Counted from the stretch's first letter, positions 29,697 through 54,781 are shown. The stretch is 64,000 bases of DNA from an uncultured virus (IMG/VR IMGVR_UViG_3300029258_001230) (IMGVR_UViG_3300029258_001230), one strand, 5' to 3'. The notes: a model not told the origin generated them from the sequence alone. Translations and numbers: made by a program.

Positions 29697-30560
29697 ATGA
29701 GAGAAGCATTATTAGGAATTGCAGTAGGCAGAAAAGGGGTAGGTAAGACTTACGCTACCCTTCAAGATATTCAAGGATATTTAAAGGGAAATCCAAGCAC
29801 AGGTGTGAAGCCTAGAAAAGTGTTAATACTAGATGTTAATAATGAGTTTGGAAATGTTAGAGAAGATCAGAACCCCGAATTTGAGCATATAAAAGCTATT
29901 AAGCTTGATGACGTTCCTAAATTCACCATGTCTAAGAAAGTAGAGGCTAGACGAGTATCCGTTCTTAAACCAGAGGGCGGGAAAATGAATATGCGTGAAT
30001 TAGCAGGGGCTTTAGAGTTTATTTTAGAGAATTACGAGAATGGGTTGTTGTTAGTGGAGGATTTAACTAGATTTGTTTCTGATTCACTTCCAAATGACTT
30101 AATTGGTGCAATTTGTACTCAAAGACACGTATCAGTTGATGTTATTATCCATTTTCAAACTATCGGAAAAGCAGCTAATCCTAAGTTGTGGGGTAATTGT
30201 AATTGGTTAAGATTCCATAAATGCGATGACAACGTAGAGAGACATAAAAATAAATTTGGAGGAGATATTGAACATCTTAAAATACTTGAAAAATTAGTTG
30301 AGATACAATATAGGCAAGGCGATAAACGTTTTTATGCTTACTTGAACAAGGATGAGCATAAGATTCAGGGTAATTTCGATAAGAAAGACTTGATGTATGC
30401 GGTCTATCAGTATTTGGAAGATAATTACAATACAGTAATGAAACCAAAGCTAAATAAGAAGGATTTAATAACAGGCAAACCCGTTTATGATAATCACGAA
30501 GAATTAGCAAAAAAACTGATTAAGGAATTAACTTTAAAATACTACGGTAATCCTTTCTAA
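29697..30560 (+). CDS. genome-packaging ATPase, FtsK/HerA superfamily (A32/P9-like)
   Basis: Walker A GRKGVGKT, Walker B LLLVED, arginine-finger/sensor QRHVSVDVIIHFQ; stand-alone 287 aa with no nuclease domain. Confidence 0.8.
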   Translation: MREALLGIAVGRKGVGKTYATLQDIQGYLKGNPSTGVKPRKVLILDVNNEFGNVREDQNPEFEHIKAIKLDDVPKFTMSKKVEARRVSVLKPEGGKMNMRELAGALEFILENYENGLLLVEDLTRFVSDSLPNDLIGAICTQRHVSVDVIIHFQTIGKAANPKLWGNCNWLRFHKCDDNVERHKNKFGGDIEHLKILEKLVEIQYRQGDKRFYAYLNKDEHKIQGNFDKKDLMYAVYQYLEDNYNTVMKPKLNKKDLITGKPVYDNHEELAKKLIKELTLKYYGNPF

Positions 30561-30604
30561 AAAAGTCTTTATCTTTGTAGCTAGTATAAGGTAAGGTTTA
30601 TAAG

Positions 30605-31708
30605 ATGGATAGAGGGTTAACAGAGCAAGATTTAAGGTTTTATTTAGAGAAGGAGCAGAACTACGCTTATACTCCTTCTTCTAATTTGCCTAATTTAAAG
30701 CGGAATAGAATTGCTTTCGATATTTACAACCCTACTTTGTTCACTCAGGAAATACCTCTGTTTTCTAGCCCTTTCGGGTCTAATGAACAACAAGGTATTT
30801 CTTATGGCGACTTACTACTATCTTTTTATTCATCTATTGAAATAAGTGCGAGTGTTGTAGATAAAAAGACAGTTAGGGTTGAGTATTTACACGAAAATGG
30901 AATAACTTACACAACAACACCTCAGACAGTGAATGATATAGATGAATTTATAACTTACTTAGAAGATCAACTTAAAAACAATTTTAATTATATTCAAGTT
31001 GGTACAGAAGACTTTATAGTCTATAAGGAGAAAAATGACACTTATTTTAATTTCAGTCCTTCACCGAATGGTAACCTTATACCTACATATTCATCCAATA
31101 ATTTAATTAACCTTCAAGTTGGAAACCCCGTTAACCAAACTATATTATGGAATACTTTTCAAGTACAGTCATCATCTGGAATACAAATATCTGATTTAAT
31201 AGGCGATTTAACATACGCAGAATTAGTATCCGAATTAAATGAGTCTATAACTCCTTATATGTTTGATTTTATCTCTGTATATGCTGATAATGTTACACAA
31301 GTAAACAAACCGATAAAGTTAAAGATAGGTTCTAGTTCGGGATATAAAACAGTTGATATAAGAAAACCTGCTATTCCTTCTACTGATAGTTCTAATGTAG
31401 TTTTGAATATACCATTAAACTATTGTCCAAACCCTAATTCAGATTTAATATATACCGTTGGGTCAGGTGAAACAGTAAGAATGGTAATAAATTATAAGCA
31501 AGGAGATGTTTATCGTTATGCTAATAAGATTCAGTCAGAAATGAATAAGGGACTGACGTTTAAACAAGCAACTAATAAAACAAGGGTTAGTTTCGATCAG
31601 TCTGATTTAAAGTATATTCAAGGGTTAGATCTTTCAAAATGGAACTTTGACACCGAAGTGCCAGAGTCCCAAATTAAAAAGTTGGTAAAAAGGTATGTTA
31701 AAAGTTGA
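30605..31708 (+). CDS. paralog of the major capsid candidate with a large insertion (second or minor capsid protein)
   Basis: DLTYAELVSEL...PYMFDFISVYADNVTQVNKPIKL aligns with DVTYTEFLESI...PFKVGYMYLESSNTAQPFKQLTV of 34913. Confidence 0.6.
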   Translation: MDRGLTEQDLRFYLEKEQNYAYTPSSNLPNLKRNRIAFDIYNPTLFTQEIPLFSSPFGSNEQQGISYGDLLLSFYSSIEISASVVDKKTVRVEYLHENGITYTTTPQTVNDIDEFITYLEDQLKNNFNYIQVGTEDFIVYKEKNDTYFNFSPSPNGNLIPTYSSNNLINLQVGNPVNQTILWNTFQVQSSSGIQISDLIGDLTYAELVSELNESITPYMFDFISVYADNVTQVNKPIKLKIGSSSGYKTVDIRKPAIPSTDSSNVVLNIPLNYCPNPNSDLIYTVGSGETVRMVINYKQGDVYRYANKIQSEMNKGLTFKQATNKTRVSFDQSDLKYIQGLDLSKWNFDTEVPESQIKKLVKRYVKS

Positions 31709-32291
31709 CTTGGCTTTTGTCCATTATCCCATCCCATACACTTCTAGCGTATTCTTCATTAATACCTTTTAAAAGTTCTGGAGACAATCTATTTATTTTA
31801 CCCCAAACTTCATCAAATGAATTTAAAAAGTCAGGAAAAACAATAGTTTCATTGGGTGTGTGATTCATGTTCATATTATACATGAAATTACCATAAGCTT
31901 GCCGTAGTTCAGTTGGGTTTTTAGCTTGGGCTAATTGGGAAACCCTTTGCCTGCTTTTATAAACAGATGAAAAGTTCCTTATACAAACCAAGAATTGAAG
32001 GTCATCCCGAACCTCTAGCCATGTGCTTAAAACTTCTCCGTAGAAAAACTTAGGATCTTTTATGACAGGGTAGTTGATTTTTTTAATTGCCTTTTTTTGT
32101 TCCTTTATAGAGTTAAAGTCAGGGTCGTTACCTATCCATATAGAACCATTTACTTTCGATACATCCGAAGGCTCTAGTCCTGCATTGAATTTATTAATCC
32201 AATTACTTTGATATTCGATAAGACCTAGCTCATTTAACCATTTGGTTATTGCGCTTGTTCCAGACCTTCCCGTTCCTGTAATTACTAACAT
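31698..32291 (-). CDS. sulfotransferase-family protein
   Basis: ITGTGRSGTS PAPS-binding loop, IKDP, CIRN. Confidence 0.75.
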   Translation of the reverse strand: MLVITGTGRSGTSAITKWLNELGLIEYQSNWINKFNAGLEPSDVSKVNGSIWIGNDPDFNSIKEQKKAIKKINYPVIKDPKFFYGEVLSTWLEVRDDLQFLVCIRNFSSVYKSRQRVSQLAQAKNPTELRQAYGNFMYNMNMNHTPNETIVFPDFLNSFDEVWGKINRLSPELLKGINEEYARSVWDGIMDKSQVNF

Positions 32292-32293
32292 AT

Positions 32294-32539
32294 TTATTGT
32301 TCTTTTCTTTCTATTTCTTGAATTTCCCTTCCTAGAAAGGGTTTGTCTTTTCGGATATTATCAAGTACTTGAAGAACGTGGTCAATTTCTGTATAGATTT
32401 CATTATATTTCAAACAAGCTTCAACGTTGACTTTACCGAATTTATCTACCTTATTAGAATCCCAATAAGAAAGCTTCTTTTTTAGTTCTTGTAATTGTGC
32501 TTTGTACTTTTTGTTAAGATGCTTTTTATTGTACCTCAT
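32294..32539 (-). CDS. hypothetical protein
   Basis: Minus-strand operon member. Confidence 0.65.
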   Translation of the reverse strand: MRYNKKHLNKKYKAQLQELKKKLSYWDSNKVDKFGKVNVEACLKYNEIYTEIDHVLQVLDNIRKDKPFLGREIQEIERKEQ

Positions 32540-32542
32540 AAG

Positions 32543-33397
32543 TTAAGGAATAACAGTTGCTAAATGTAAATTATCTTTAAACTTATCTTGGTTTCTCATT
32601 ACTTCCTTAGATATGTTGTTTAGTCGCTTGTCTAAAGCAGTGTAGAACATCCATGTTTTTTCCTTGTCGTGTTTATTCTTTTCATACTCCCCTATTAAGA
32701 ACATCATTTTTGGATCAACACCTAAATCAATTATTTCTTTCGCACGGTCAAGCATTTCAGGAAGCCTTCTTTCCGCATCCTTCATATCTTTTTCGTACTT
32801 AGGTAAGAATTGATTGTTGTAGTAATCCAACCTTTCTTCTAGTCTCTTTTCAAGAGTAACAATATGAAGGTTTGTATCAAATAATTCTTTCTTTAGCTTG
32901 GCATCTGTGTAAGGGTCGTTTTCTTCCTTAATTTTGTCCTGTAGCGATTTTGATAGCTCTTTTAGGTTTTTAAGATACTCGTTAGTCAACTTATTGACTT
33001 CAATTAATTCTACATTATCAGGTTTCTTTTCAGTTGAAGCAAAAAACGAGTTTTCAGATAACTCTTTCATTTTAGCCTCTAAATCATCAAACTGAATGTT
33101 TTTCTTTTCTTCATCCGTTGCAATCTTTTCGATTGATGGTATGATGTGGTGTTTAACCTCTCTCTTTGTTAATTTCCACGATGCTGAATAATGTCTTAAA
33201 GGGATTTCTGCTTCGTGCTTTTCTTTTTCAGCTAAAGCCCTTTCCATTTTTGAGTATCTTTTTTTGTTTGAAATCACTTTATCACACTCGTTAATAAAGT
33301 TAGAATACATTTGTATTCCTTTCTCCCAAATAGTTAGTAAGTTTTCAGCACTGTTCTTTCTGTAAAGTAGTTTTTCTAATTCCGTTAATTCTTGCAT
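32543..33397 (-). CDS. coiled-coil hypothetical protein
   Basis: 284 aa, helical and K/E-rich. Confidence 0.75.
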   Translation of the reverse strand: MQELTELEKLLYRKNSAENLLTIWEKGIQMYSNFINECDKVISNKKRYSKMERALAEKEKHEAEIPLRHYSASWKLTKREVKHHIIPSIEKIATDEEKKNIQFDDLEAKMKELSENSFFASTEKKPDNVELIEVNKLTNEYLKNLKELSKSLQDKIKEENDPYTDAKLKKELFDTNLHIVTLEKRLEERLDYYNNQFLPKYEKDMKDAERRLPEMLDRAKEIIDLGVDPKMMFLIGEYEKNKHDKEKTWMFYTALDKRLNNISKEVMRNQDKFKDNLHLATVIP

Positions 33398-33400
33398 AGT

Positions 33401-33577
33401 TTAATTGTTTAAATTGTTATTAATAAGATTGATTGAGTCTCTTTTTAACTCCATTTCAATTTGTTTTGTTTTTTCTCTTTCAGTTTCAACGTCATATTCC
33501 TTCAACTGTACTACTGTTAAAAGAATTGTTGTACCTATTATTAAGGTGGCAACGACAAGTCCTTCTATTCTATCCAT
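33401..33577 (-). CDS. small membrane protein (not in ORF track)
   Basis: MDRIEGLVVATLIIGTTILLTVVQLKEY..., 58 aa, fills the operon gap. Confidence 0.6.
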   Translation of the reverse strand: MDRIEGLVVATLIIGTTILLTVVQLKEYDVETEREKTKQIEMELKRDSINLINNNLNN

Positions 33578-33591
33578 TTTAATCTGTTTTT

Positions 33592-33804
33592 TTATTCAAC
33601 ACCAATTTGAGTATTTGCCCTCTTCCTAACAGAAACGATTATATATCTCCCATTTTCTGAATATTTACAATCCACATAACGTTCATGTCTAATAAGAAAA
33701 TTAATAAATGAGTCGCCACCTCTTAAAGAGTCTCTAATCATTCTGTTTGCTACTATGTGTGGTGTTTTAGTGCATAGACTCTGCAACTCTTTTTCTTCAT
33801 TCAT
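33592..33804 (-). CDS. hypothetical protein
   Basis: Minus-strand operon member. Confidence 0.6.
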   Translation of the reverse strand: MNEEKELQSLCTKTPHIVANRMIRDSLRGGDSFINFLIRHERYVDCKYSENGRYIIVSVRKRANTQIGVE

Positions 33805-33819
33805 TTTTTAATAGTTTAA

Positions 33820-34545
33820 TTATTGATTTAAAATTTCATCCATAACATCTAACCAAGTTCCGTTAAGATGTTTGCATTGAACTGTCGTATCTATAAATAC
33901 AGGAATGTCTTTTTGGTGACAGTCATTGGCGAACCAAGTATCAGCATGGTGCATTTCTCCTTTTACAAATCTGAACGGAACATTCTCAAAAGCTTTCCTA
34001 GATATTAAAGCGCAACCGATACCTGCATGATATACTTGTTTTAAGTTACCATTGTATAATAAAGGCTCTTCGTGTTCAATAAAAGGCACAGTCTTATAAG
34101 CATTTTTAAAACGATCCAAAGGCTCAGCTACTTGAACCATAGATTTTCTCATTTTACCGTGAAAAATATCATATACCCCAGACACAACAAGTTTTCTGCT
34201 CGTTAAAAGTCTTTCAATAACATCTAAAGGAGGGATAACGTCTGTTTCCAAGTGAAGCATATAGTCGTAGTTGTTATTTAAAGCATATTGACGGCAGGCT
34301 TCGTGTGCCTTAGTAGTTCGTTCTAAAACCCCGCTTAAATCATAACCAACTCTTTCAACTACAAAACCTTCCTCTTCCATTTCCATAGCAAACTCTCCTG
34401 TTTCGCTATTGTCAGCCAAGTAAACATCATAGTTTGAATAAGTCAGGTTTTTGACGGTTGTTTTCCATGTTTCCCAACAGTATTTTTTAGAGTCATGTTG
34501 CGGAGCGCACACTAATACTTTTGGTAGGTCTATCGGTTTTTCCAT
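33820..34545 (-). CDS. GT-A fold (GT2-like) glycosyltransferase
   Basis: YLADNS, YDYMLHLETDV (DxD-like), GIGCALISR, ADTWF. Confidence 0.8.
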   Translation of the reverse strand: MEKPIDLPKVLVCAPQHDSKKYCWETWKTTVKNLTYSNYDVYLADNSETGEFAMEMEEEGFVVERVGYDLSGVLERTTKAHEACRQYALNNNYDYMLHLETDVIPPLDVIERLLTSRKLVVSGVYDIFHGKMRKSMVQVAEPLDRFKNAYKTVPFIEHEEPLLYNGNLKQVYHAGIGCALISRKAFENVPFRFVKGEMHHADTWFANDCHQKDIPVFIDTTVQCKHLNGTWLDVMDEILNQ

Positions 34546-34776
34546 AAATTTTATTTTGCCCTATTAGATATGTCCGTAAAAATAACAAACCATATTCAAT
34601 AATCCAAAAATAAGATTAACATAAATAACATGGTTATTTAATTGATTATCAAATATTTATTAATCAAAAACACTTGTATTGCAAATTATGTTTTTTTATT
34701 AACGGAATAAAAACCCACAACTTTGTATTGTTAGAAAATTGTAAAACCGAGTTATGTAACTCATAAATATCAAAAA

Positions 34777-34887
34777 ATGAAAGAAGTTAAAGACATTTTC
34801 AAGGCGATGCTACCAGTAGCTTTAGGTGTGACAGCAGGATTATTCGTGCATGAGCAAATTAAGAAAGCTATTGATAAGAAAGCTTAA
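34777..34887 (+). CDS. 36-aa membrane peptide upstream of the capsid candidate (not in ORF track)
   Basis: MKEVKDIFKAMLPVALGVTAGLFVHEQIKKAIDKKA. Confidence 0.65.
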   Translation: MKEVKDIFKAMLPVALGVTAGLFVHEQIKKAIDKKA

Positions 34888-34912
34888 TTAAAAATCATTA
34901 AAAAGAAGAAAG

Positions 34913-35599
34913 ATGAGAGATTATTTTGGAGAAGCGATGAATTTCGCAAACGAAAGCTACTCTAACTATGATGGTGGAGGTTGGAACAACATGGATTCTT
35001 ACAACTACCAAGATGGTTATGAGTACGCTTCACAAGGAGCAGGTGTAGAAGCAAAAGCTTCTTTACCATTTGTAATTAACATTGCTAACTCAACTACTGA
35101 TGACGTATCATCTGTTGTTGTATTAGGTGCTAACTCGAATTTGACTGGAGCTACTAACTTTGGTAACGTTGCGGCTATTACTATTACAATGGATAATGGT
35201 GATGTAACTTATACTGAGTTCTTAGAGTCTATCAAGTCTGAGCCATTTAAAGTTGGTTATATGTATTTAGAGTCTTCTAATACAGCACAGCCATTTAAGC
35301 AATTGACTGTAACGTATAGAGAGCCTAATGGTCGTAAGACAGAGTTACCTGTAACTCCACGTAAAGACCCTATGCAGAATCAAGCGGATGTTACTATTGT
35401 TAAGTATTCATTCCCAGTAGACGGATTTACAAGAATCACAACTACTATCTTGGCATCTGCGACTCTTACTATGAGTCTGTACCCACAAGAGCAATTGAAC
35501 CTTGCAAGAGGTTTAGTAGGACGTTCGATTGGTAAAGCTTATTCACAGCCTAACTTATCGCAATTCCAATTGCCTACGGGTAATCCTTTAGTAGGATAA
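34913..35599 (+). CDS. putative major capsid protein (single jelly-roll-like)
   Basis: Beta-strand-rich 228 aa; codon usage looks highly expressed (AAC, TTC, GCT, CGT); own upstream promoter region and terminator; opens the structural block. Confidence 0.6.
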   Translation: MRDYFGEAMNFANESYSNYDGGGWNNMDSYNYQDGYEYASQGAGVEAKASLPFVINIANSTTDDVSSVVVLGANSNLTGATNFGNVAAITITMDNGDVTYTEFLESIKSEPFKVGYMYLESSNTAQPFKQLTVTYREPNGRKTELPVTPRKDPMQNQADVTIVKYSFPVDGFTRITTTILASATLTMSLYPQEQLNLARGLVGRSIGKAYSQPNLSQFQLPTGNPLVG

Positions 35600-35617
35600 T
35601 TAGAATTGTCTAATATA

Positions 35618-35660
35618 AGAGGGCAGAGCCTACTAATGTAGGTTATCTGCCCTTTTTTTT
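35618..35660 (+). terminator. intrinsic terminator after the capsid candidate
   Basis: AGGGCAGA...TCTGCCCT followed by a T-tract. Confidence 0.85.
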
Positions 35661-35676
35661 AAGTTAAATTGAGGTT

Positions 35677-36108
35677 ATGACTATATATGAATACACGGCA
35701 ATTAATAATCCCAACGGAGCTAGAAATCTTTTAGGTTCTTATGGTGTTAAGCCTATCAACAGACCTGATTACTTAGCTAAACAATTAGCTGATTTAATAT
35801 CTCGAACAGGGAATGATGGTTTGTATAAATTAGGTTCTATTCATCCTGATTTTGAATTGGTAAAGAAAATTGTCCAAGGTCAAGTTGAAAAAGAATATAA
35901 GGAGAAAGAATCTGAGAAAGAAAAAAGCTTCCTTAATGCTGATGGTCAGGAAATTAAAGACACGGTAAAAGAGATAAAAGCAAAACAAGAAGTAATGGGG
36001 TATGGCAATGGATCAAACTCACCGAATATTAACTCTGATAAAACAGAATTAATGATAATAGGAAGTATTGCTTTAATTGGATTGGCGTTGATTTTAAATC
36101 GAAAGTAA
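35677..36108 (+). CDS. virion membrane protein (C-terminal TM)
   Basis: FLNADG motif; C-terminal hydrophobic helix plus RK. Confidence 0.7.
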   Translation: MTIYEYTAINNPNGARNLLGSYGVKPINRPDYLAKQLADLISRTGNDGLYKLGSIHPDFELVKKIVQGQVEKEYKEKESEKEKSFLNADGQEIKDTVKEIKAKQEVMGYGNGSNSPNINSDKTELMIIGSIALIGLALILNRK

Positions 36109-36698
36109 TGAGACATTATAGCAATACAATTAAGAATATAGCTAACGCATACAAGTCTAATGACTTAGAGTTGGCTAGACATTTCGTATATACTGAGTTG
36201 GCTCGCATGATAGATGAAGAGCCTAATAAGGTTGCTGATTTATTAAATGAATCAGGTGTTACAGGTGTAAGTTCTCAAAGTGATAAGACTAAGTTGGTTG
36301 AAGCATCCTCTAGGGAGATAATCAGAAATAAAAAATTCCAAGACTTAATATTAGCTAAAATAGCTATTAATTCTAAGAAGTCTAATTTTTATAAGGCGAA
36401 TGGAGAAGGTGTTTCCGATTTGGTAGAGCAAGTAGGTCAAGCAGGGCAGTCTGCTGGAGGAGGTCAAGCAGGTGCTATTATAGGTTCTCTATCTGAGTTG
36501 GGTAGTAATATATTTGGTTTTTTTACTACTAAAAAGCAAATGGATATTGAGGAGCAACAAGCCAAGTCATCTATGTATGCTAATTTACTTAAAGATGATG
36601 ATGATGGAACTAATTGGCTACCCATAGCTATTATAGGAGGTGTTCTCCTCATTGGAGGGGTTGTAGTTTGGAAAGTTTTAGGAAGTAAAAATAAGTAA
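36108..36698 (+). CDS. virion membrane protein, paralog of 36709
   Basis: FYKANG, Gly-rich segment, C-terminal TM. Confidence 0.7.
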   Translation: MRHYSNTIKNIANAYKSNDLELARHFVYTELARMIDEEPNKVADLLNESGVTGVSSQSDKTKLVEASSREIIRNKKFQDLILAKIAINSKKSNFYKANGEGVSDLVEQVGQAGQSAGGGQAGAIIGSLSELGSNIFGFFTTKKQMDIEEQQAKSSMYANLLKDDDDGTNWLPIAIIGGVLLIGGVVVWKVLGSKNK

Positions 36699-36708
36699 AA
36701 AAAACAAG

Positions 36709-37242
36709 GTGGTAGGTTTGAATAAAAAGCAGTTAATAGGGGTTTTTGCTAAGTTGATAAGCAAGAACCCTTTGGCTGTTAAAAACTTATTGAGAGACCA
36801 TGGGGTTGAAGTTGGTGATGATAAATATAAAATCGCTAAATATTTATTGGATAATATTAAAAACAACCCTGTTTTAGTGAGAGATTTGTCTAGCTTGATT
36901 GTTAAAGAAGGATTGATTAAATCTATTGATTATTCTAGTGGCGATGGAAGATGGGCAGAAGCAGGAGTAACCGTAGCTAAAGACACGGCAACAGGAGCGC
37001 AATCAGGAGGTGGTGTTGGAGCAATTGTCGGCTTTATAGTAGGGTCTATATCGGCAGGGTTTGGAATAGGAGATGCTAAAAAACAAGACGAGTTAGAGGA
37101 CGAAAAGGCAAAAAACGAACTTTATGCAGATTTGTTTTCAGAAGAAAAAGAATTAAAAAAGAATAATTTAATACCAATACTTATAGTCGGGGGTGTTTTA
37201 TTAGTTTCAGCTATAATGATTGTTGTATTTGTAAAATTTTAA
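36709..37242 (+). CDS. virion membrane protein, paralog of 36108
   Basis: KKQDELEDEKAKNELYADL vs KKQMDIEEQQAKSSMYANL; IPILIVGGVLL vs LPIAIIGGVLL. Confidence 0.7.
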   Translation: MVGLNKKQLIGVFAKLISKNPLAVKNLLRDHGVEVGDDKYKIAKYLLDNIKNNPVLVRDLSSLIVKEGLIKSIDYSSGDGRWAEAGVTVAKDTATGAQSGGGVGAIVGFIVGSISAGFGIGDAKKQDELEDEKAKNELYADLFSEEKELKKNNLIPILIVGGVLLVSAIMIVVFVKF

Positions 37243-37246
37243 ATAG

Positions 37247-37735
37247 ATGTTAATAGAAGCTACTTTAATAAATGATTGTTTATCTCCAAAAGGGAGTTTG
37301 TCTTCTGAGGATAAAAAACCATTCCATAAAGGTGATAAGGTTGTAGGTAGGGTTGTTGATATAAAAAATGGCGACTCGAAAATGCTAGGATTACAGACAG
37401 TAGAAGGTTATATAATACCAGATGCTTTTGTAGAGCCAATAGGAGAGTTTAAAGGTGATCCAAATGATTTAGGTATTCAGGATGCTGAATATTACGAGGA
37501 AGAGTCGATTGGTAAAAAAGCTGTTAGTGATTCAATCCAAAAAGTAAATCCCAAAAACCTCATAAGTTCAAATAGTATGAGGAGTAAAAAAGCTGTTCAA
37601 ATAGGAGTTGCAGGAGGGTTGTTAGGTCTTGTTGTAGCGATGATTTATGGTAAAAACAAATTAATATCTACTGGTATAGGTGCTTTTGGAGGTATGGTGG
37701 TAGGTAATTACATTTCAGAAATAGAAAATAAATAA
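37247..37735 (+). CDS. membrane protein with two C-terminal Gly-rich TM helices
   Basis: GVAGGLLGLVVAM and GIGAFGGMVVG. Confidence 0.7.
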   Translation: MLIEATLINDCLSPKGSLSSEDKKPFHKGDKVVGRVVDIKNGDSKMLGLQTVEGYIIPDAFVEPIGEFKGDPNDLGIQDAEYYEEESIGKKAVSDSIQKVNPKNLISSNSMRSKKAVQIGVAGGLLGLVVAMIYGKNKLISTGIGAFGGMVVGNYISEIENK

Positions 37736-37737
37736 TT

Positions 37738-38220
37738 ATGGGACAGAATAAAAAAGCGATTTTGAAAACGGGGTTTGGAACAACTTTGAATTTGTTAGAG
37801 TTAAGTCCTAGAGAGTATATAGTGACAAAGAAAATAACTACTGTAATAGATACTCCTCATCAAGAAATTAAAGGGACTAAAAACACTTTTCTTGAAGGTG
37901 CTAAAATCAAAGGTAATCTATGGAAAGAAACTGATGATAAGCAAGGTAAGCAAAGAAATGTAGTAATGGTTCAAGCTGACGGTGGTAGATATTTATTACC
38001 CGTTGATGTTGTTGAGTTGGTTGATACAGAGAAAGAAGAGATTAAAAAAGAACTAGAGACCTTAAAAGGAGATTTAGAAAAGTATAAAGATCAAGCAAAA
38101 GAACATTTGTCTGGAATAAAGACAGAAACTAAAGACTTGTTTGATAAAGAAGTTTTCGGACTAAAGGTTAAGCAGTTGTTGTTAATAGGTGTTGGGATTT
38201 TGATAATTAAAAAATTGTAA
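37738..38220 (+). CDS. membrane protein (C-terminal TM)
   Basis: Ends LLLIGVGILIIKKL. Confidence 0.7.
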   Translation: MGQNKKAILKTGFGTTLNLLELSPREYIVTKKITTVIDTPHQEIKGTKNTFLEGAKIKGNLWKETDDKQGKQRNVVMVQADGGRYLLPVDVVELVDTEKEEIKKELETLKGDLEKYKDQAKEHLSGIKTETKDLFDKEVFGLKVKQLLLIGVGILIIKKL

Positions 38221-38588: not shown

Positions 38589-38593
38589 ATGGT

Positions 38594-39322: not shown

Positions 39323-39328
39323 ATTAAT

Positions 39329-39826: not shown

Positions 39827-39828
39827 TT

Positions 39829-40098: not shown

Positions 40099-40101
40099 AC
40101 T

Positions 40102-42460: not shown

Positions 42461-42461
42461 C

Positions 42462-42932: not shown

Positions 42933-42934
42933 AA

Positions 42935-43369: not shown

Positions 43370-43379
43370 ATTTAAGATT

Positions 43380-43751: not shown

Positions 43752-43753
43752 TT

Positions 43754-44344: not shown

Positions 44345-44350
44345 GATTTT

Positions 44351-45380: not shown

Positions 45381-45382
45381 AT

Positions 45383-46170: not shown

Positions 46171-46227
46171 AAAAATTTTAAAAAAGGTTCGTAAATTTGT
46201 ATCGAATCAACTTTTAAAATTTTAGAT

Positions 46228-46647
46228 ATGAACGTAAGTAAATTAGTAGGAGATTACATTAAGAAGACAATTGATAGGTTGTCGAAAGAACATAAGGTAG
46301 AAAAAGAAGACATTTCTATCGTTATTGGTTCTAAAGTTAATGGAAGAGAAATAACGCCCTACTACTTTTATGCAAAAAACGGTGTTCCTGTGTCGAATGA
46401 AAACGGACTTGTGACATTGGATTTTGTTAGAGATATTTTAGGTAAGAAGATAGATATGTTAGGTTATGGAGCGATAACGGATAACTTTCTAAAAACTTAC
46501 TTTAGAACAATTGGACAAGAGTATGAGACAGAGCCGAATCATGTTTTTTTATTCTTATCCGATTTAGGAGAAAAAGAAATAACAGTTGGACTGTTTAAAA
46601 GTTCAGAATTAATAAGAACCATGAAACTTAGTGATGTGTTCGAGTAA
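46228..46647 (+). CDS. hypothetical protein
   Basis: 139 aa, preceded by TAAATTTG. Confidence 0.7.
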   Translation: MNVSKLVGDYIKKTIDRLSKEHKVEKEDISIVIGSKVNGREITPYYFYAKNGVPVSNENGLVTLDFVRDILGKKIDMLGYGAITDNFLKTYFRTIGQEYETEPNHVFLFLSDLGEKEITVGLFKSSELIRTMKLSDVFE

Positions 46648-46658
46648 ATGAATAAACT

Positions 46659-46934
46659 ATGGCTTTAGAATCAAATACTTTTACAAAGGCAATAACGAAT
46701 GATAGCCTGACTATTCAATCGGGATTCGGTGTTAGAAAGTTATCTATTTATAATGCTAGTGCCGTTACGGGGACGGTTACTGGTAACGCTACATTAGGAG
46801 ATCAAACATCTAGTGCTTTAGATATAGAAGAGGGAGAGTCTTTTACTATTATCGCTTCAAATGATAATCCAATTGCAGGTGTTACAATAACCGCTCCAGC
46901 TTCTTGTACTTTAAAGGTTTTAGCTGAAATATAA
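46659..46934 (+). CDS. small beta-rich structural protein (vertex/penton candidate)
   Basis: T/S/G-rich, beta-strand pattern; directly upstream of the spike. Confidence 0.45.
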   Translation: MALESNTFTKAITNDSLTIQSGFGVRKLSIYNASAVTGTVTGNATLGDQTSSALDIEEGESFTIIASNDNPIAGVTITAPASCTLKVLAEI

Positions 46935-46946
46935 ATTTGTAAAGGT

Positions 46947-48833
46947 ATGAATGTAGGGACAGGATTCGGGATAAATAAAGGTAATGCAGGGGGTGGAAGC
47001 ATAAGCGGAAGTGGAACTAATAACTATGTAGCAAGATGGACACCTGATGGAACTACATTGGGGGATTCTATTATACAAGATGATGGAACTTCTTTGGGAG
47101 TTAATTTCACACCATTTTCAAGTGCTTTATTATACTTGCAAGGAGATGGAACTTCTAATCACGGAACAACACTTTGGATTAAAGAAGCAACTACTGTAAC
47201 TGAGAGTACAACGGGATTACTTATTAATCAGAATGGAAGTAATGAGGCTAATACTAAAAAAGGGTCTGGTGTTACTGTTAGAAATGCAACCAACACTTCT
47301 ATTGCCTATGATGTAGATATTAATTCAAGTTCAGCTTCCTTATCGGTTGGTTTAAGAAATGATATTACAAATACAAGTGCTAATGGTACGATAGTTGGTG
47401 TTTTTAATACTGATTTGCAAAGTTCAGGTAGCGGTAATGTTATTTCTTCATTTACAAACATAACTAATCCAACAAGTGGTTTAGTTTATGGTAATTTTCA
47501 CGAAGTCACTTATAACGGAAGTAATACAGCAACGGCTGTTTATGGTTCTAGTTCTGAGATTTCAGTAGATGGTACGGCGGTTGTCGATAATTATTTTGGG
47601 CATAGTTCTATTTATGGAGAAACAACGAACGGAACAACGACAAACGTTTACCTATTTAGGGGTATAGGAGAATCGAATAACGCTACTAACTTATATGGTT
47701 TATATATTGATGTTTCAGGCACAGCAACTAATAAGTATGCAGTTACATTAATTGATGGAACAGAAGCAGACGGATATATTCTAAGTTCTGATGCGAATGG
47801 TAATGGTAGTTGGGCAGACCCTTCTACTTTGGTTGATACTATTTATACGGCTGATGGTAGTTTTAACAATGACAGAACGGTAGATTTAAGCGGTTATAGT
47901 TTAACCTTTAACAAAAATTACAATATAAATAAAGACTTTAGGGTAAATTCGTATCCTTACTCTGGCAGTTATAGCGACCCCTATTTTAATATTGACAGAT
48001 ACGGCGGTATTGATATTATGGGGTCTAACCCTACTACAAACAATGGTTATGCACTTTCCGTTAGCCGTTCAATAGGTACTTCAGATAAAGTTTTGGGAGT
48101 AGGTTTAAGAGGTGGCGGTATTTGGAACGGAATGCAAAGAGGCATATCTATTGGCGACCTTAATAATGCGACATGGCCTTTTGGCATGAGTTTTAACGAC
48201 GGAGAAATAAGATTTTCTAATGGCACTAATTTTACTGACGGGTGGAACGATGTTATTCAACATAGATTTAATTTAAAAGGCAATCCTATTGTAATTTTTA
48301 ACGAGCAAGGACTAGGAACTTTTACTGTTGGCGGAAATAGTAGAATTGGTTCAGAATCAATTTCATTACAAGGTCATACTCTAATCCAAGGTCAAGGAAA
48401 CACAAGTGGAACAACCGCTTTAGAGGTTGAGAATATAGATGGGGATAGCCTGTTAACCGTCTTAGATAATGGGAGGTCTTCCTTTATTAGTCAGGTGGGG
48501 TCAATTCAAGCAAGTGCTATTACTGTATCAGCAAATTCTGCTACCTTTGATGGAGATAAGGGTAATTCACAACCTTTAGATTTGACGAATGCGACTGGAG
48601 ATATAACATTAACTTTCACTAATTTAGAAGCAGGATTTACCTATTTTATCGAAGTAACTCAAAAAGCGAGTTCTCCAGTTGATATTGGAACTTATACTAT
48701 TGCAGGAGGTTCTGCTACATTCCCAAGTGGTACAGCTCCAGTAATTAGCACTGGTGCAAATGCGGTAGATACTTTAGTAGTTTATTACAATGGTACAGAC
48801 ATTCGTGTTAACTTCTCACAAAATTATTCATAA
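46947..48833 (+). CDS. spike/fiber receptor-binding protein
   Basis: 628 aa, T/S/N/G-rich; GSGTNNYVARW, GYILSSDANGNGSW and FPSGTAPVISTGANAVD motifs typical of fibers. Confidence 0.75.
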   Translation: MNVGTGFGINKGNAGGGSISGSGTNNYVARWTPDGTTLGDSIIQDDGTSLGVNFTPFSSALLYLQGDGTSNHGTTLWIKEATTVTESTTGLLINQNGSNEANTKKGSGVTVRNATNTSIAYDVDINSSSASLSVGLRNDITNTSANGTIVGVFNTDLQSSGSGNVISSFTNITNPTSGLVYGNFHEVTYNGSNTATAVYGSSSEISVDGTAVVDNYFGHSSIYGETTNGTTTNVYLFRGIGESNNATNLYGLYIDVSGTATNKYAVTLIDGTEADGYILSSDANGNGSWADPSTLVDTIYTADGSFNNDRTVDLSGYSLTFNKNYNINKDFRVNSYPYSGSYSDPYFNIDRYGGIDIMGSNPTTNNGYALSVSRSIGTSDKVLGVGLRGGGIWNGMQRGISIGDLNNATWPFGMSFNDGEIRFSNGTNFTDGWNDVIQHRFNLKGNPIVIFNEQGLGTFTVGGNSRIGSESISLQGHTLIQGQGNTSGTTALEVENIDGDSLLTVLDNGRSSFISQVGSIQASAITVSANSATFDGDKGNSQPLDLTNATGDITLTFTNLEAGFTYFIEVTQKASSPVDIGTYTIAGGSATFPSGTAPVISTGANAVDTLVVYYNGTDIRVNFSQNYS

Positions 48834-48850
48834 AATAAAATTCATATAAA

Positions 48851-49177
48851 ATGGCTTTAGAAATAACAGCAACAGAAACAGCTAAATTAACCGTACAAGG
48901 TACTTCAACAGAATTACCAAGTCTATACAGTAGATTATCTTGTCAAATGACAGAGGACGGTAAAACAATGAACACAAGGTTGTTTAACTACGGTGTAAAG
49001 CAAAATTACTTAGATGGGGAAACCTCTGTAAATATAGCTGAGTTAAATCCAAAATATGCTTTAGAAGTAGATACAGTAGGTGGAGAAACTCAAAGCATTA
49101 CATTGGCTAACCAAAAAATGAAAGCATTATTGGAAGCGAAAGGATATACGGTAGTAATTACTGATTTACCAAGCTAA
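48851..49177 (+). CDS. spike-associated protein
   Basis: Follows the spike gene. Confidence 0.55.
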   Translation: MALEITATETAKLTVQGTSTELPSLYSRLSCQMTEDGKTMNTRLFNYGVKQNYLDGETSVNIAELNPKYALEVDTVGGETQSITLANQKMKALLEAKGYTVVITDLPS

Positions 49178-49188
49178 AAAGTAGTTAT

Positions 49189-49797
49189 ATGCACATTGCA
49201 CAATTTATGAATCAAGGGTCACGGGGTGGCGGTGGCGGTAGCTGTACGGCTATAAAGTCTGATACTTTACAGATTGGGTCAGGAACGAGTAACGCATCCT
49301 ACGCCCCTGCTTATGGTCTTTACGATTATTCGTGGTATGGTGCTTTATGGGAGGCTTCTGAATTTACGGGTACTGCTGACGGAGAGATACAAATAACGGG
49401 ATTACAAGTAGAGGTTAGCGGTTATACACCAACTTATACCTATAACAATATGGAGATATGGTTGAGTGAAGTTACTGAGACAATCCTTTATGACCCACCT
49501 GCTGTTGATGGTACGGATATGACTAAAAGTAACGAGGTTCAGGTATATGTTGGAGATTTTACCATATCTTCAAATGGGTTTATAAACATAGACTTTGATA
49601 CTAACTATTGCTTTAGCGGTAATAACTCGCTATTTGTTGAGTTTAGAAATAAAGACGGAAGTTGGCAAAGTGGTTTTGGTAATGGAGAATATGAAGTAGA
49701 GATAAGCAAAGCAGGTTATAAAGCCACGGATAATGCGTACCCAACTGGTACGGGTTTAAGAACCAACGGAAGGATTAATACAATTTTTAAATATTAA
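49189..49797 (+). CDS. beta-sandwich spike/adhesin-like protein
   Basis: PAYGLYDYSW...IDFDTNYCFSGNNSLFVE resembles Bacteroidota adhesin-type modules. Confidence 0.5.
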   Translation: MHIAQFMNQGSRGGGGGSCTAIKSDTLQIGSGTSNASYAPAYGLYDYSWYGALWEASEFTGTADGEIQITGLQVEVSGYTPTYTYNNMEIWLSEVTETILYDPPAVDGTDMTKSNEVQVYVGDFTISSNGFINIDFDTNYCFSGNNSLFVEFRNKDGSWQSGFGNGEYEVEISKAGYKATDNAYPTGTGLRTNGRINTIFKY

Positions 49798-49799
49798 TT

Positions 49800-50033
49800 A
49801 TGAATTTTCAAGAACTAGAAACAGAATTATCAGTAATAGGCACAGTTGATTATTGCGGATATAATGGGGAGAATACAAACAGTATCATTATAGCTATAAG
49901 CGATTTTAACAATACTTCTAGTAATGTAAACGCTTATAACAATATAATCTCTAACAGAGTTGAACCAACGCATCCAAAAGTTGAAAACTTAACTATTCAC
50001 GGTAATATTATTAAAGCTGATTACAGAGCATAG
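49800..50033 (+). CDS. hypothetical protein
   Basis: 77-aa ORF in operon. Confidence 0.65.
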   Translation: MNFQELETELSVIGTVDYCGYNGENTNSIIIAISDFNNTSSNVNAYNNIISNRVEPTHPKVENLTIHGNIIKADYRA

Positions 50034-50741
50034 ATGAATGTTTATACTGAAATATTAAATCATCTTGAAGGAAACGTATTCCTATTATCATTTTCCATGA
50101 TAATAACAGGGGTTATAATGATCTTTTCGACATTCTTTAAAACAACTAAAGATGCTTGGATTGAAAGAATCAAGAGTGCTAAGTCAATAATAAGTATAGG
50201 TGGTTCAGAGAAATACACTATATCAGATTTAGAAAACCATAAGGTTTTTAGCAAGTTAGATAGGTTTAAAAAGTATAATAAGCGTTTTTTAACTCATGGA
50301 GAATATGACGAAACCAAAACTAAGGCTTTTAAGGTGTTTTTGGACTCAAAATTAGAGTCTACTAAGGATTGCATAAAGTATATTATTAAGCATTCAAATA
50401 ATAAAATGTCTAGGTTAGAGTTAAGGAACTTGATAGATACAGCTTTCTTGAACCATGATAAAGAGCTGGAACAAAAAATGATTTTGAAGTTCACGGGTGA
50501 CGGATTGAGTAAGTTGAATACAGCTATGTTAGTTGACAAATTCTTCTCCATAAGAGAATTAGCGATGGATAAGTATTCAGATGCTTTTGATGATGTTTTC
50601 TCTACTCCTACCTTTGATGATAACAAACATATTTTGAATGTAATATTCTTTTTGATACACATAGAGTCTCAGGATATAGTAGAAGCTTGTGTCGAAGCCT
50701 TTGAGTCTGTTAACGGGATTTTTAAAGACATTGAGTATTAA
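50034..50741 (+). CDS. membrane-anchored hypothetical protein
   Basis: N-terminal TM plus helical domain. Confidence 0.7.
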   Translation: MNVYTEILNHLEGNVFLLSFSMIITGVIMIFSTFFKTTKDAWIERIKSAKSIISIGGSEKYTISDLENHKVFSKLDRFKKYNKRFLTHGEYDETKTKAFKVFLDSKLESTKDCIKYIIKHSNNKMSRLELRNLIDTAFLNHDKELEQKMILKFTGDGLSKLNTAMLVDKFFSIRELAMDKYSDAFDDVFSTPTFDDNKHILNVIFFLIHIESQDIVEACVEAFESVNGIFKDIEY

Positions 50742-50792
50742 ATTTAGATTAATCTAAAAATGTGTGTAAATTTGTAGTATAGAAATTATTTT

Positions 50793-51317
50793 ATGAGGAA
50801 ATTAGTCGATCAGTTTATAAGAGAGTTTGGGTTTGACGGTTGGGGAGATTATATTGACAGTTCTTTTCAATGGATGATTAATCAAAAGATACTTTTGCTT
50901 TCAATAGGACTTGGAAGTGTTGGTGCTTATTTAGAAGAGTATTTAGGTTTAGAGCCTGTAGTTTATTTAGCTTTTATCGGGCTTTTGGTTATGGAGTTTT
51001 GGTCTGGGATTAAAGCTTCTATTAAAGAGGGTAAAAAAATCCAGTCAAATAAATTGCAACGAGTAATATTGAAAATGCTTACCTACACTACTTTAATAGG
51101 TATAATGCACATTTTTAACACTAGATTAAATACACCAAACATATTTGGGTTAAAGATTAAAATATTCTCATTCATATATTACACAACAATCAATTTAGTA
51201 GTAGTTCAGCTTATAGTTTCAGTCTTGGAAAATCTATCTAGGTTAGGGTATTCAGAAACAAGTAAAATATTTAAAATAATATCTTCCAAAATCAACAAGT
51301 GGACAGATATAAAGTAG
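50793..51317 (+). CDS. holin (phage holin family 4-like)
   Basis: 3-4 TM; EFWSGIKAS...IQSNKL...K...SVLENLSRLG. Confidence 0.7.
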   Translation: MRKLVDQFIREFGFDGWGDYIDSSFQWMINQKILLLSIGLGSVGAYLEEYLGLEPVVYLAFIGLLVMEFWSGIKASIKEGKKIQSNKLQRVILKMLTYTTLIGIMHIFNTRLNTPNIFGLKIKIFSFIYYTTINLVVVQLIVSVLENLSRLGYSETSKIFKIISSKINKWTDIK

Positions 51318-51338
51318 TAATCAATTAAACCAATATAC

Positions 51339-51752
51339 ATGAAAATTACAGTTACTTACCGAGATTTAATTAATGAGTTGAAACCATCTTTAGAATTGGT
51401 TTCAAAAAAGCAGTATCCATCAACAACGGATTTAGATCATTTGCTAAATATTGCAGATAATCTAAGAGAGGTTTCAGATAAAGCAAAGCTGTTTTGGGAA
51501 ACTAGAGAAAAAATCCTAAATGATTTAGCCGATAAAGACGAGAATGGTAATGCTATTCAGAAGCAGGATGAAAACGGAAATAGCTATTTAAGTCTTACTG
51601 ATGAGAGTAAAGAGTTATTCGGAAAAAGACTTACCGAACTAAATGACAAGAAAGTTAAGATTGAGATTAAGAAGTTGAAAAAGACAGATTTTAAGGGAGT
51701 TGATAATTTAACACCTTCTGAACTGTTTGGTTTGGCGTTAATTTTAGAATAG
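51339..51752 (+). CDS. hypothetical phage protein
   Basis: DKDENGN motif; ends LTPSELFGL. Confidence 0.65.
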   Translation: MKITVTYRDLINELKPSLELVSKKQYPSTTDLDHLLNIADNLREVSDKAKLFWETREKILNDLADKDENGNAIQKQDENGNSYLSLTDESKELFGKRLTELNDKKVKIEIKKLKKTDFKGVDNLTPSELFGLALILE

Positions 51753-51753: not shown

Positions 51754-52248
51754 ATGATTGACTTTAAAAACATAACGGATGAAGAGGCTCTTTCTAAATT
51801 GAAAGAGTTCTTTTCTATCCATGAATTAGTAGATAAGGCTACCTATGATAAATATGGAGAAAGGGCTTGGGATTTCATGGATTTGCGCCTCGTTAGAAAC
51901 TTGTTGTTTATAAGGGTTAAATTAGGTAAGAGTATAACCGTTAATAATTGGAAATGGGGTGGTAGTCTTTCACAAAGAGGGTTACGGACTAATACTTCTT
52001 ATATAGTTAAAAAGAAAACTCAAAAAGACAGTATTTATCTTTCTGCTCATACTATGTTTAAAGCAGTTGATTTTGATGTGGACGGAATGACAGCAAACGA
52101 GGTTCGTGAGTGGATCGAATCCAATTCAGGGGAATTGCCTTATCCGTGTAGGTTAGAAAGAAAGTTAAATGGTAATTATATAACATGGGTTCACTTAGAT
52201 GTATATTACAATCCGTCTTTGCCAAAAGTATATTTATTTGATGTTTAA
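51754..52248 (+). CDS. peptidase M15-like endolysin
   Basis: RGLR...SAH...AVDF...WVHLD zinc-peptidase signature. Confidence 0.8.
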   Translation: MIDFKNITDEEALSKLKEFFSIHELVDKATYDKYGERAWDFMDLRLVRNLLFIRVKLGKSITVNNWKWGGSLSQRGLRTNTSYIVKKKTQKDSIYLSAHTMFKAVDFDVDGMTANEVREWIESNSGELPYPCRLERKLNGNYITWVHLDVYYNPSLPKVYLFDV

Positions 52249-52347
52249 ATGGTTGTCAAGACTTGTAATATTGTTAATGATATTTGTAGTTCCTTTTGGG
52301 ATACCAATGTTGGGTTTGTACGCAGTAATATTTAAAAGAAAAAATAA

Positions 52348-53766: not shown

Positions 53767-53767
53767 T

Positions 53768-54136
53768 ATGGATAATAATAAAAAGGCATGGATTTCAGTA
53801 GGCGTAATAGGAGCATTGTTTCTAGGGCTATACGCTTATAATAAACGAAAAGCTAAACCAACTCAGTCAAACAAGGGTTTGTCCGTTAAAGATGCTCAGG
53901 ATATAGAGCATACAGAATTGTTTCCGATTAGATTAGGAAGTAAAGGGTATGAAGTAAAGGTGGTTCAAAGATACCTGAATACAGTGTGTAAGTCGGGAGT
54001 AGAATTATCTGGAGTGTTTGATGAGAATTTAAAAGATAAACTAATCAATTGTAAAATAATTGGTAGAGACGAGATAGATGAAGATTTTTATTTTAGAATC
54101 CAAAAGGATTTGGAGGCAGGAAAGATTTTGCCTTAG
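53768..54136 (+). CDS. membrane protein with peptidoglycan-binding domain
   Basis: IRLGSKGYEVKVVQRYLN...SGVFD resembles PG_binding_1. Confidence 0.7.
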   Translation: MDNNKKAWISVGVIGALFLGLYAYNKRKAKPTQSNKGLSVKDAQDIEHTELFPIRLGSKGYEVKVVQRYLNTVCKSGVELSGVFDENLKDKLINCKIIGRDEIDEDFYFRIQKDLEAGKILP

Positions 54137-54164
54137 TATTGTTTAATTTGTAAATGTAAAAGTG

Positions 54165-54308
54165 ATGAATAAGAAGTTAGTTAGAAACATCATTATTGGA
54201 GGAGTAGTTTTAACGGCAGGTTTTTTAGCGTATAAGCACTTCACCAAAGAGGAAGATGTAAACGGAGAAGAGACTCATTCAGGAGCGTCTGGATGTGGGT
54301 GTAGTTAA
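54165..54308 (+). CDS. 47-aa membrane peptide (not in ORF track)
   Basis: MNKKLVRNIIIGGVVLTAGFLAYKHF...HSGASGCGCS. Confidence 0.7.
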   Translation: MNKKLVRNIIIGGVVLTAGFLAYKHFTKEEDVNGEETHSGASGCGCS

Positions 54309-54331
54309 TTTAAGTTTAAGGTAAAAAAGGT

Positions 54332-54781
54332 ATGGAAAAAAAGAAAAGAAACATTTTAATCGGAGTAGGGTTGATTGCTACTGGGTTAATCTTAACGAAA
54401 AGAGCAGTTGACAAAGGAAAAGAAGTTCCTGTGATCGGGAAATTGTTTAAAAAAGATGGTGCATCAGAAGAAGTAGCTGTTGAACAAGTAACAGAAGAAA
54501 GTCATTCAGAAGCTATAGGAATTAGAGGTGGTTCAGGTAGTATTAAATGGCAAAACTGTTTCACAGATGATAAAGGGAATACTTGTTGTTATCACCCTAC
54601 TACGGGAGATGTTCACTGTAACGTAGGAGCTTCAAAGGTAAGGGCTAAAGCAAATGCTATTGACAGGAGTTTTAGAAGTGTTCAAAGAGATTTGAGAGGT
54701 AGAACGGTTAGACCACTAAGAAGAGCTGTTAGGACAAATGCACTTAACAGAGCTTCTTTGTTTCAAATGTACGGTTTATAG
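54332..54781 (+). CDS. membrane protein with basic C-terminus
   Basis: N-terminal TM; HSEAIG motif; Arg-rich tail. Confidence 0.7.
   Translation: MEKKKRNILIGVGLIATGLILTKRAVDKGKEVPVIGKLFKKDGASEEVAVEQVTEESHSEAIGIRGGSGSIKWQNCFTDDKGNTCCYHPTTGDVHCNVGASKVRAKANAIDRSFRSVQRDLRGRTVRPLRRAVRTNALNRASLFQMYGL

Follow-up and report, generated by a model that had tools for sequence, protein, structure and literature searches.

The Turriviridae STIV and STIV2 encode, beside the coat gene, a small stand-alone P-loop ATPase of the FtsK-HerA type, B204, one of the A32/P9-like ATPases; they infect archaea, and the STIV genome measures roughly 16–17 kb. In the sphaerolipoviruses (Helvetiavirae: P23-77, SH1, HHIV-2 and PH1), with genomes of 16–31 kb, an A32-type ATPase gene is followed by genes for single-jelly-roll coat proteins, and the particle has an internal membrane. 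PRD1, PM2 and FLiP (Tectiviridae, Corticoviridae and Finnlakeviridae) share a gene logic of ATPase, double jelly-roll coat protein, many small membrane proteins and lysis genes. The known tailless membrane-containing phages are small-genomed: the largest cultured one compared here, SSIP-1, whose host placement is Bacteroidetes-related, has a circular genome of 43,788 bp (43.8 kb; G+C fraction 0.57). The SSIP-1 particle is described as icosahedral, tailless and membrane-containing, with major capsid proteins of two types, and its genome as almost devoid of database similarity (PMC6356626); by that description SSIP-1 is the closest cultured analogue of the virus considered here. The latter, known from its genes alone, is the uncultured virus IMGVR_UViG_3300029258_001230, of which we analyzed a 64-kb stretch (hereinafter the window) with a focus on its late region, positions 29697–54781. 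Our best explanation of this region is a double-stranded DNA virus of a large undescribed lineage, without demonstrable membership in a named family, that builds its particle like PRD1, PM2, STIV and the sphaerolipoviruses and not like the tailed phages; that it is of the tailless type, probably with a membrane, and has an A32/B204-type packaging ATPase we consider probable. It is set apart from its cultured relatives-by-build by a genome two to several times larger, early genes of tailed-phage type, a coat family of its own and a conserved predicted metalloprotease.

The genes on which this reading turns are, in window coordinates:

27227–27520, plus strand: very basic protein of 97 residues, Tlr6F/DUF5754-like by a weak Pfam match; the best-conserved small core gene

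28462–29694, plus strand: acidic low-complexity core protein of 410 residues, always directly upstream of the ATPase gene

29697–30560, plus strand: stand-alone predicted genome-packaging ATPase of the A32/B204 (FtsK-HerA) type, 287 residues, assigned from fold and motifs

30605–31708, plus strand: protein of 367 residues, of which residues ~170–295 are by profile match a probable divergent jelly-roll paralogue of the 34913–35599 product

34913–35599, plus strand: single jelly-roll protein of 228 residues, candidate major capsid protein from its AlphaFold2 model and conservation

35677–46170, plus strand: run of 22 small late open reading frames (ORFs), candidate virion membrane proteins from their hydrophobic segments

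35677–36108, plus strand: C-terminally anchored membrane protein of 143 residues, a core gene

40102–40887, plus strand: core protein of 261 residues with an HExxH motif, a putative zinc metalloprotease within the membrane-protein run

The first-pass annotation of the sequence had singled out a stand-alone FtsK/HerA-type ATPase with an RH...Q motif, the gene at 29697–30560. Its product has a Walker A motif (GRKGVGKT), a Walker B motif (LLLVED) and a TQRH...HFQ stretch, and all 28 aligned sequences share G11, K13, G16, K17, E121, D122, R143, H144, H152 and Q154. It is a hallmark of the superfamily that the strand following Walker B opens with an arginine and closes with a glutamine; in the AlphaFold2 model (predicted local distance difference test, pLDDT, 90.6), R143 and Q154 flank the strand 148–153. 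Foldseek searches with this model returned STIV2 B204 as the top match (E 1.5e-7), the top 11 PDB rows being all STIV/STIV2 B204 (E 1.5e-7 to 7.7e-7). VIA likewise ranked B204 first (Z 17.3, 186 of 204 residues, root-mean-square deviation 2.6 Å), followed at lower ranks by DndH-C (16.5), HerA (15.4), VirB4 (14.9) and TrwB (12.6). The best BFVD matches were likewise packaging ATPases: those of giant viruses (A32-like), of a corticovirus (an NTPase), of mavirus, the haloarchaeal virus PH1, Sputnik V3 and STIV. Sequence identity is 12–15%; the protein has ~60 extra C-terminal residues (helices 229–282), and its profile gave nothing meaningful against PDB sequences (best E 0.12, a ClpB P-loop), leaving no similarity to any PDB chain at the level of hidden Markov models (HMMs). 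Language-model neighbor clusters carry DUF87 or Zot labels on 11–20% of their members. As modeled, then, the protein is of the packaging-ATPase type found in membrane-containing jelly-roll viruses, for which packaging would be the function, and B204 is the closest solved relative of any part of the window; in contrast to STIV, the host of the window virus is bacterial and its genome is ~74 kb.

That genome size comes from public assemblies: three window proteins have exact copies on four contigs, the longest of 74,211 bp, and a 48.4-kb metagenome contig (L080) is 100% identical to window 25796–40557; were the two collinear, its end would fall near window position 74,190. Hence we take the genome to be ~74.2 kb, with the window its first 64 kb (~86%); the window has 33% G+C, and nearly all of its genes lie on the plus strand. 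IMG/VR searches with single window proteins found no close relatives, and an alignment of the ATPase was required to recover the 34 IMG/VR loci compared here, many of which are truncated by contig ends; 32 of them hold an ATPase homologue. Two IMG/VR relatives, G2 and G3 (84.7 and 79.4 kb; CheckV 100% complete), were taken as whole, and the third large relative is a 101.8-kb contig (G010) binned with a Flavobacteriales metagenome-assembled genome (MAG). In public metagenomes at large, including Tara ocean assemblies, ATPase homologues form 470 clusters, on contigs of up to 117 kb. The lineage is absent from the catalogued phages searched: neither the ATPase nor the coat candidate had a tblastn match at E 1e-3 in 50,697 GenBank phage records (two chance-level rows only at E 10), a megablast of 20 kb of the window against GenBank phages gave no match, and we found no description in the full-text literature, in a search that left subscription journals largely outside. 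These results agree with the first-pass suggestion of a possibly undescribed lineage.

Beyond this set, the 101.8-kb relative has a second, 227-residue ATPase paralogue (profile E 2.2e-15; contig 1, 4889–5572; L083), far from its structural module. Distant ATPase relatives (22–24% identity) lie in the chromosomes of the cultured Sphingobacteriales Pedobacter, Nubsella and Pseudopedobacter (L063–L066) and may represent further tailless-type prophages. Short contigs assigned to Saccharibacteria, Bathyarchaeia and Ignavibacteria MAGs (L059, L060 and L062) hold other ATPase relatives (43–49% identity); these assignments are likely binning artefacts and not hosts.

The product of 34913–35599 had been proposed as a beta-rich capsid candidate, with a fold other than a jelly roll named as ground for giving up the tailless interpretation. 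Its AlphaFold2 model, for which 58 family members served as alignment (mean pLDDT 84.3, core >90, 11 strands), predicts a jelly roll with high confidence at residues ~47–215, after an N-terminal helix and a disordered Gly/Asn/Tyr-rich linker, so that the proposed fold stands. All its structural matches are jelly rolls and all are weak (Foldseek E no better than 1e-3 and VIA Z at most 6.4, where by the tool's own guidance Z <8 may reflect only a common arrangement): they include comovirus, FLiP, PBCV-1 and faustovirus coats (Z 5.2–6.0), picornavirus VP3, and satellite-virus and nanovirus coats. Sphaerolipovirus coat structures are not among the listed matches, whereby similarity to them is not excluded. 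Clustered at 50% identity, the family counts 544 representatives, and its length is stable at ~220–250 residues. A homologue adjoins the ATPase gene in 28 of the 34 loci, that is, wherever the locus is long enough, and the coat gene was also found in five of five genomes tested with integrated relatives. We infer from gene content, and on balance favor, a role as the major capsid protein, because this is the only jelly roll conserved lineage-wide, it adjoins the ATPase gene, its length is stable, and no other core protein is coat-like.

Certain features of the same matches count against that role. They also take in non-capsid jelly rolls, namely the AlgX carbohydrate-binding module (VIA Z 6.3), C1q/TNF-like trimers and nucleoplasmin, together with penton and spike proteins, and the family profile showed no similarity to any solved capsid protein among PDB sequences. 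With matches so generic or penton-like, the protein could be a vertex or receptor-binding component, the true major coat having gone unrecognized. This is the alternative that survives best, although we consider it unlikely: the virus would still be a tailless one with an A32-type ATPase, and the jelly roll of 34913–35599 would be its penton or receptor-binding protein. It draws on the place of penton and spike-base proteins among the best matches, with PR772 P31 (chain O; Z 6.2, 99 of 124 residues), STIV A223 (5.1) and PM2 P1 (4.8), alongside the TNF/C1q-like trimers and PRD1 P5, all at Z <8. However, receptor-binding proteins are usually far more variable than this lineage-wide family; the remaining core proteins are an acidic low-complexity protein, an HExxH enzyme and membrane proteins, none of them coat-like; and the family also occurs in tandem-duplicated forms, as expected of coat proteins en route to a double jelly roll.

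These duplicated forms are found in at least four relatives of 397–456 residues that carry the domain as two tandem copies. In P0246 and P0258 each half aligns to the window protein by BLASTP (24–28% identity, E 6e-10 to 3e-17). The contigs concerned range from 4 to 107 kb (including 36, 71.6 and 107 kb), and IMG/VR scans for the genomic surroundings of the tandem forms found nothing. The coexistence of single and duplicated forms bears on the origin of double jelly-roll capsid proteins. A second, more divergent copy probably exists in the window itself: the family profile, run with hmmsearch against 114 window ORFs, matched the 30605–31708 product (E 5.6e-6), and hhalign aligned the two over 105 columns (probability 72.9%, E 3.1e-5), making this protein a candidate second coat or vertex protein. 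Among the IMG/VR loci its homologue occurs only in L002. Profile searches detected second copies of the 34913–35599 type in G2 (149 residues), G3 (180 residues) and the 101.8-kb contig (320 residues), with neither position nor length conserved.

Downstream of the coat candidate lies a dense run of predicted membrane proteins. With a membrane segment defined as a Kyte-Doolittle 19-residue window of at least 1.6, a crude threshold at which counts could shift by a few, 25 of the 47 ORFs within 29697–54781 have at least one hydrophobic segment, as against 5 of 67 outside this region; 21 have exactly one, in keeping with the more than 20 single-transmembrane proteins first noted. The run at 35677–46170 has such a segment in 18 of 22 consecutive ORFs (one ORF with two). 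In 12 of these the segment is C-terminal and cannot be a signal peptide. These small proteins would be virion proteins, and a similar run flanks the coat gene in both the 101.8-kb contig and an integrated relative in Fluviicola chungangensis MAH-3.

Six genes form the core of the 34 loci: besides the ATPase and coat genes these are the genes for the 97-residue basic protein (23 loci), the 410-residue acidic protein (32), the 143-residue membrane protein (23) and the 261-residue protein (28). In the last, all 23 aligned members keep H184, E185 and H188, and although PDB sequences yielded no match, members match zincin families, always below threshold (SprT-like in 5 of 23, M56 in 4 of 23, PhageMetallopep and M48 in 3 of 23 each). 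We had tried this protein as a second coat and rejected that for its invariant HExxH motif. The 410-residue protein, with homologues also in G2, G3, the 101.8-kb contig and the Fluviicola prophage, has no Pfam, PHROG or atlas family; we rejected it as a double jelly-roll coat on account of its acidic, low-complexity sequence, a poor atlas model (pLDDT 0.51) and no named fold, and a scaffold or assembly factor would be a guess. The 97-residue protein is 59–71% identical in 17 IMG/VR relatives, 51–53% in a further two, with 60% for the 101.8-kb contig, and was not found in the Fluviicola prophage. All 20 aligned members match PF19058 (DUF5754; best E 1.9e-5) below the Pfam cut-off, the window protein with 23.0 bits (cut-off 27.4) over profile positions 3–33 of 49. 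DUF5754 is Tlr6F, reported as common to polinton-like viruses, giant viruses and phages (PMC12220804).

The strongest single argument for a tailless particle comes from the integrated relative just mentioned. ATPase relatives 52–54% identical to that of the window are integrated in Flavobacteriales, namely F. chungangensis MAH-3, Parvicellaceae and Crocinitomicaceae MAGs and a record labeled Glaciecola amylolytica; the most likely host of the window virus is accordingly a member of this order, in line with the Bacteroidota host first surmised. In F. chungangensis the element, with boundaries inferred from gene content, extends over ~23.5 kb from a serine recombinase beside the host clpS (~118.3 kb) to a helix-turn-helix regulator (~141.7 kb), after which host-type genes resume. 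It carries the ATPase, the coat gene, 14 ORFs with a membrane segment among the 19 of its late block, the HExxH protein and the acidic protein; elsewhere it has GH108 and CHAP-type lysis domains, a DUF6908 protein and replication-type genes. No second jelly-roll paralogue was detected in it, and we found no terminase, portal, HK97 capsid or tail family. As so compact a prophage has no room for a head-tail module, the block that it shares with the window is most simply the whole particle-building module. The same prophage also encodes a patatin-like phospholipase and a PLD-like protein (G006 contig 18, 120346–121434 and 132851–133741; L076 and L077), which are noteworthy in a virus that presumably handles lipid. 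The locus in the record labeled G. amylolytica THG-3.7 (CP034120.1; L054) has a G+C fraction of 0.358 and is 76–80% identical in DNA to parts of the F. chungangensis prophage region; it looks as if either the gammaproteobacterial species label of the record is doubtful or the element has crossed phyla.

That no tailed-phage hallmarks are recognizable had been noted from the window alone, and this extends to the relatives. Pfam and PHROGs searches gave no match to terminase, portal, HK97 capsid, tape-measure or tail-tube families among 101 window ORFs, and PHROGs gave none to terminase, portal, capsid or tail-tube families in G2 (98 of 98 ORFs of at least 60 residues scanned) or G3 (113 of 114); the same families were missing from the 101.8-kb contig (150 of 155 ORFs scanned). 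Six-frame searches with Terminase_6N found 0 of 5 related records (G001–G005), and those with TerL_ATPase, Phage_capsid and Phage_portal 0 of 5 each (G001–G004 and G010); the same models were found in 3–5 of 14 control genomes. The sole 'terminase' matches in the relatives are to phrog_2666 (E 9e-7 and 5.6e-6), and the protein that makes them is the A32-like ATPase. As to the proviso that such genes might lie elsewhere on the contig, none turned up in the window or in the relatives, a verdict that covers the contig short of its final ~10 kb.

Some further considerations weigh against a tailless, membrane-containing virus. The particle shape, the taillessness, the internal lipid layer and the coat role are all drawn from gene content; the last ~10 kb of the ~74.2-kb genome lies beyond the sequence read; and IMG/VR classes the relatives as linear without end repeats, CheckV completeness being uncertain for a novel lineage. 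Fold models were made for two window proteins, and among the many ORFs that lack annotation, including five at 15516–26576, HMMs could miss a very divergent HK97 fold, portal or tail protein. The collagen-like proteins of G2 match PHROG 'tail fiber' families, the matches falling on collagen repeats (including those of a 5,338-residue ORF), and the automatic taxon label of the neighboring atlas clusters is Uroviricota. Finally, searches of all SSIP-1 ORFs with the ATPase and coat profiles and with all window proteins brought no relationship to this analogue (best full E 2.2 for the profiles, no phmmer match below 0.004).

Several of these points would be explained if the virus were a tailed phage (Caudoviricetes) whose hallmark genes are too divergent for Pfam and PHROGs or sit in the final ~10 kb, with the ATPase and the jelly roll as accessories; most ORFs have no family, the early genes resemble those of tailed phages, the atlas neighbors are labeled Uroviricota, and jelly-roll domains occur in tail and cement proteins of tailed phages too. 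We hold this to be improbable: TerL is normally easy to detect, yet no TerL, portal or HK97 match appeared in three relatives of 79–102 kb or in six frames, the lone 'terminase' match is the A32-like ATPase, and the Fluviicola prophage, beside its module of ATPase, jelly-roll, membrane-protein and protease genes, has nothing fit for a head-tail module. That the locus is instead a conjugative or secretion-type mobile element and not a virus, with the ATPase and membrane proteins as transfer apparatus and polyvalent proteins as effectors, would suit the likeness of the ATPase model to VirB4, TrwB and HerA, the LPD1 and LPD25 domains at 17974–24010 and the chromosomal integration of relatives, but is more improbable still, given that B204 is the best match and the only one to span nearly the whole chain, that BFVD returns packaging ATPases, that a holin and an endolysin are present and a conserved jelly-roll protein lies beside the ATPase, that the Pfam and PHROGs searches of the window ORFs brought up neither a relaxase nor a coupling protein nor a full-length VirB4 family, and that the 34 relatives are listed in IMG/VR as viral contigs.

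A tailless virus with an A32/B204-type ATPase is therefore the reading that we retain, and the comparison with described systems can be drawn more closely. Like the sphaerolipoviruses, the window virus has a small conserved and a larger divergent jelly-roll protein near the ATPase, whose BFVD matches include that of PH1; unlike them, it gives no sequence match and its second paralogue varies in both position and length. With PRD1, PM2 and FLiP it shares the gene logic set out above, FLiP and PhiCjT23 also infect Flavobacterium, and the weak fold matches of its coat candidate take in the FLiP coat, the PR772 penton and PM2 P1; it differs from them in a coat candidate that is a single and not a double jelly roll, a genome several times larger, its tailed-phage-like early genes and the lack of sequence similarity. 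SSIP-1 gp43, annotated as structural, is a 6,960-nucleotide coding sequence (~2,319 residues), and giant ORFs likewise occur downstream of the membrane-protein run in relatives: 5,338 residues with collagen-like repeats throughout (G002 contig, 52323–68339; L045) and 3,772 residues (G003 contig, 40053–51371; L042). No counterpart is present within the 64 kb of the window.

The remaining features of the window include a lysis module, as first annotated, and early genes akin to those of tailed phages, as also anticipated:

12457–13003: adjacent gene pair, DUF4160 and DUF2442

13235–26576: block with a 299-residue protein that has a DarB/methyltransferase-like N-terminal region, then five proteins of 499–846 residues (15516–26576)

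28005–28469 and 61617–62036: two proteins with the DnaA C-terminal helix-turn-helix (PF08299; E 3.8e-9 and 1.3e-4, respectively)

31698–34545, minus strand: cassette of five ORFs (197, 81, 284, 70 and 241 residues) between the ATPase block and the coat gene

33820–34545, minus strand: last ORF of this cassette, glycosyltransferase-like (phrog_12406, E 1.6e-5)

41604–41990, plus strand: protein with a CarboxypepD_reg-like domain (Pfam)

45694–46170, plus strand: protein with a LEA_2 domain (Pfam)

46947–48833, plus strand: Gly/Ser/Thr/Asn-rich protein of 628 residues, by composition a possible spike or fiber

50793–51317, plus strand: holin (PF05105, E 4.5e-11)

51339–51752, plus strand: phrog_1401 protein

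51754–52248, plus strand: endolysin (phrog_894, E 2.7e-19)

54834–57736: five consecutive genes for an S-adenosylmethionine methyltransferase, a glycosyltransferase, a sulfotransferase (PF17784), a TOD1/MUCI70-type glycosyltransferase and a methyltransferase

The spike label is plausible and a guess, the protein having no Pfam, PHROG or PDB sequence match. Homologues of two cassette genes (32543–33397 and 33820–34545) adjoin the ATPase gene in L002 and the 101.8-kb contig, and the ATPase gene of G2 and G3 lies directly beside the coat gene. Several glycosyltransferases are also encoded by G2, G3 and the 101.8-kb contig, and the glycosyltransferase and sulfotransferase genes may serve glycan modification of the particle or the host surface. 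In the early half, Pfam and PHROGs identify HNH, Dam-type and other methyltransferases, MazG and a PD-(D/E)XK exonuclease besides the DUF4160/DUF2442 pair. Two of the five large proteins carry large-polyvalent-protein domains, LPD1 at 17974–20307 and a weak LPD25 at 22511–24010, and the 101.8-kb relative encodes a DarB-like helicase/methyltransferase protein of 1,852 residues; such DarB-like and polyvalent proteins may be co-delivered with the DNA against host defense. The window showed no family of DNA polymerases or primases, and a tRNA scan of it found no tRNA genes.

Put together, these parts would give a particle in which the 34913–35599 jelly-roll protein forms the icosahedral shell, perhaps with the 30605–31708 protein at the vertices or as a second coat. 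The shell would enclose a lipid vesicle studded with ~18–20 small single-pass membrane proteins from 35677–46170, and the ATPase, placed at a vertex, would pump the genome into the preformed particle. The metalloprotease and the small basic Tlr6F-like protein would be further core parts, and release would proceed through holin and endolysin. As a broader and decidedly tentative proposal, which we regard as possible and not as probable, all of this may belong to a high-rank (family-to-class) bacterial lineage of jelly-roll/A32-ATPase viruses. Its shell would come from one conserved single-jelly-roll family, duplicated in tandem in some members into a double jelly-roll-like protein with halves still similar in sequence, and its genomes would have grown from ~23-kb prophages to 74 to >100 kb by taking up replication and anti-defense genes of tailed-phage type.

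Counts made by electron microscopy suggest that non-tailed forms make up most marine viruses, yet sequence collections are dominated by tailed phages. Here a widespread lineage, with hundreds of ATPase and coat clusters from several public metagenome sources including Tara, appears to combine a tailless particle type with genomes that measure 74 to >100 kb. The lineage is labeled as tailed phage by automatic tools, or left unlabeled, so that its share of viromes has probably been miscounted. With F. chungangensis MAH-3 in culture and its prophage compact, the predictions are directly testable. Should the broader proposal hold, the lineage would offer a living series for the transition from single to double jelly roll and, in bacteria, a counterpart of the way giant viruses enlarged their genomes; the Tlr6F-like core protein would be common to both groups.

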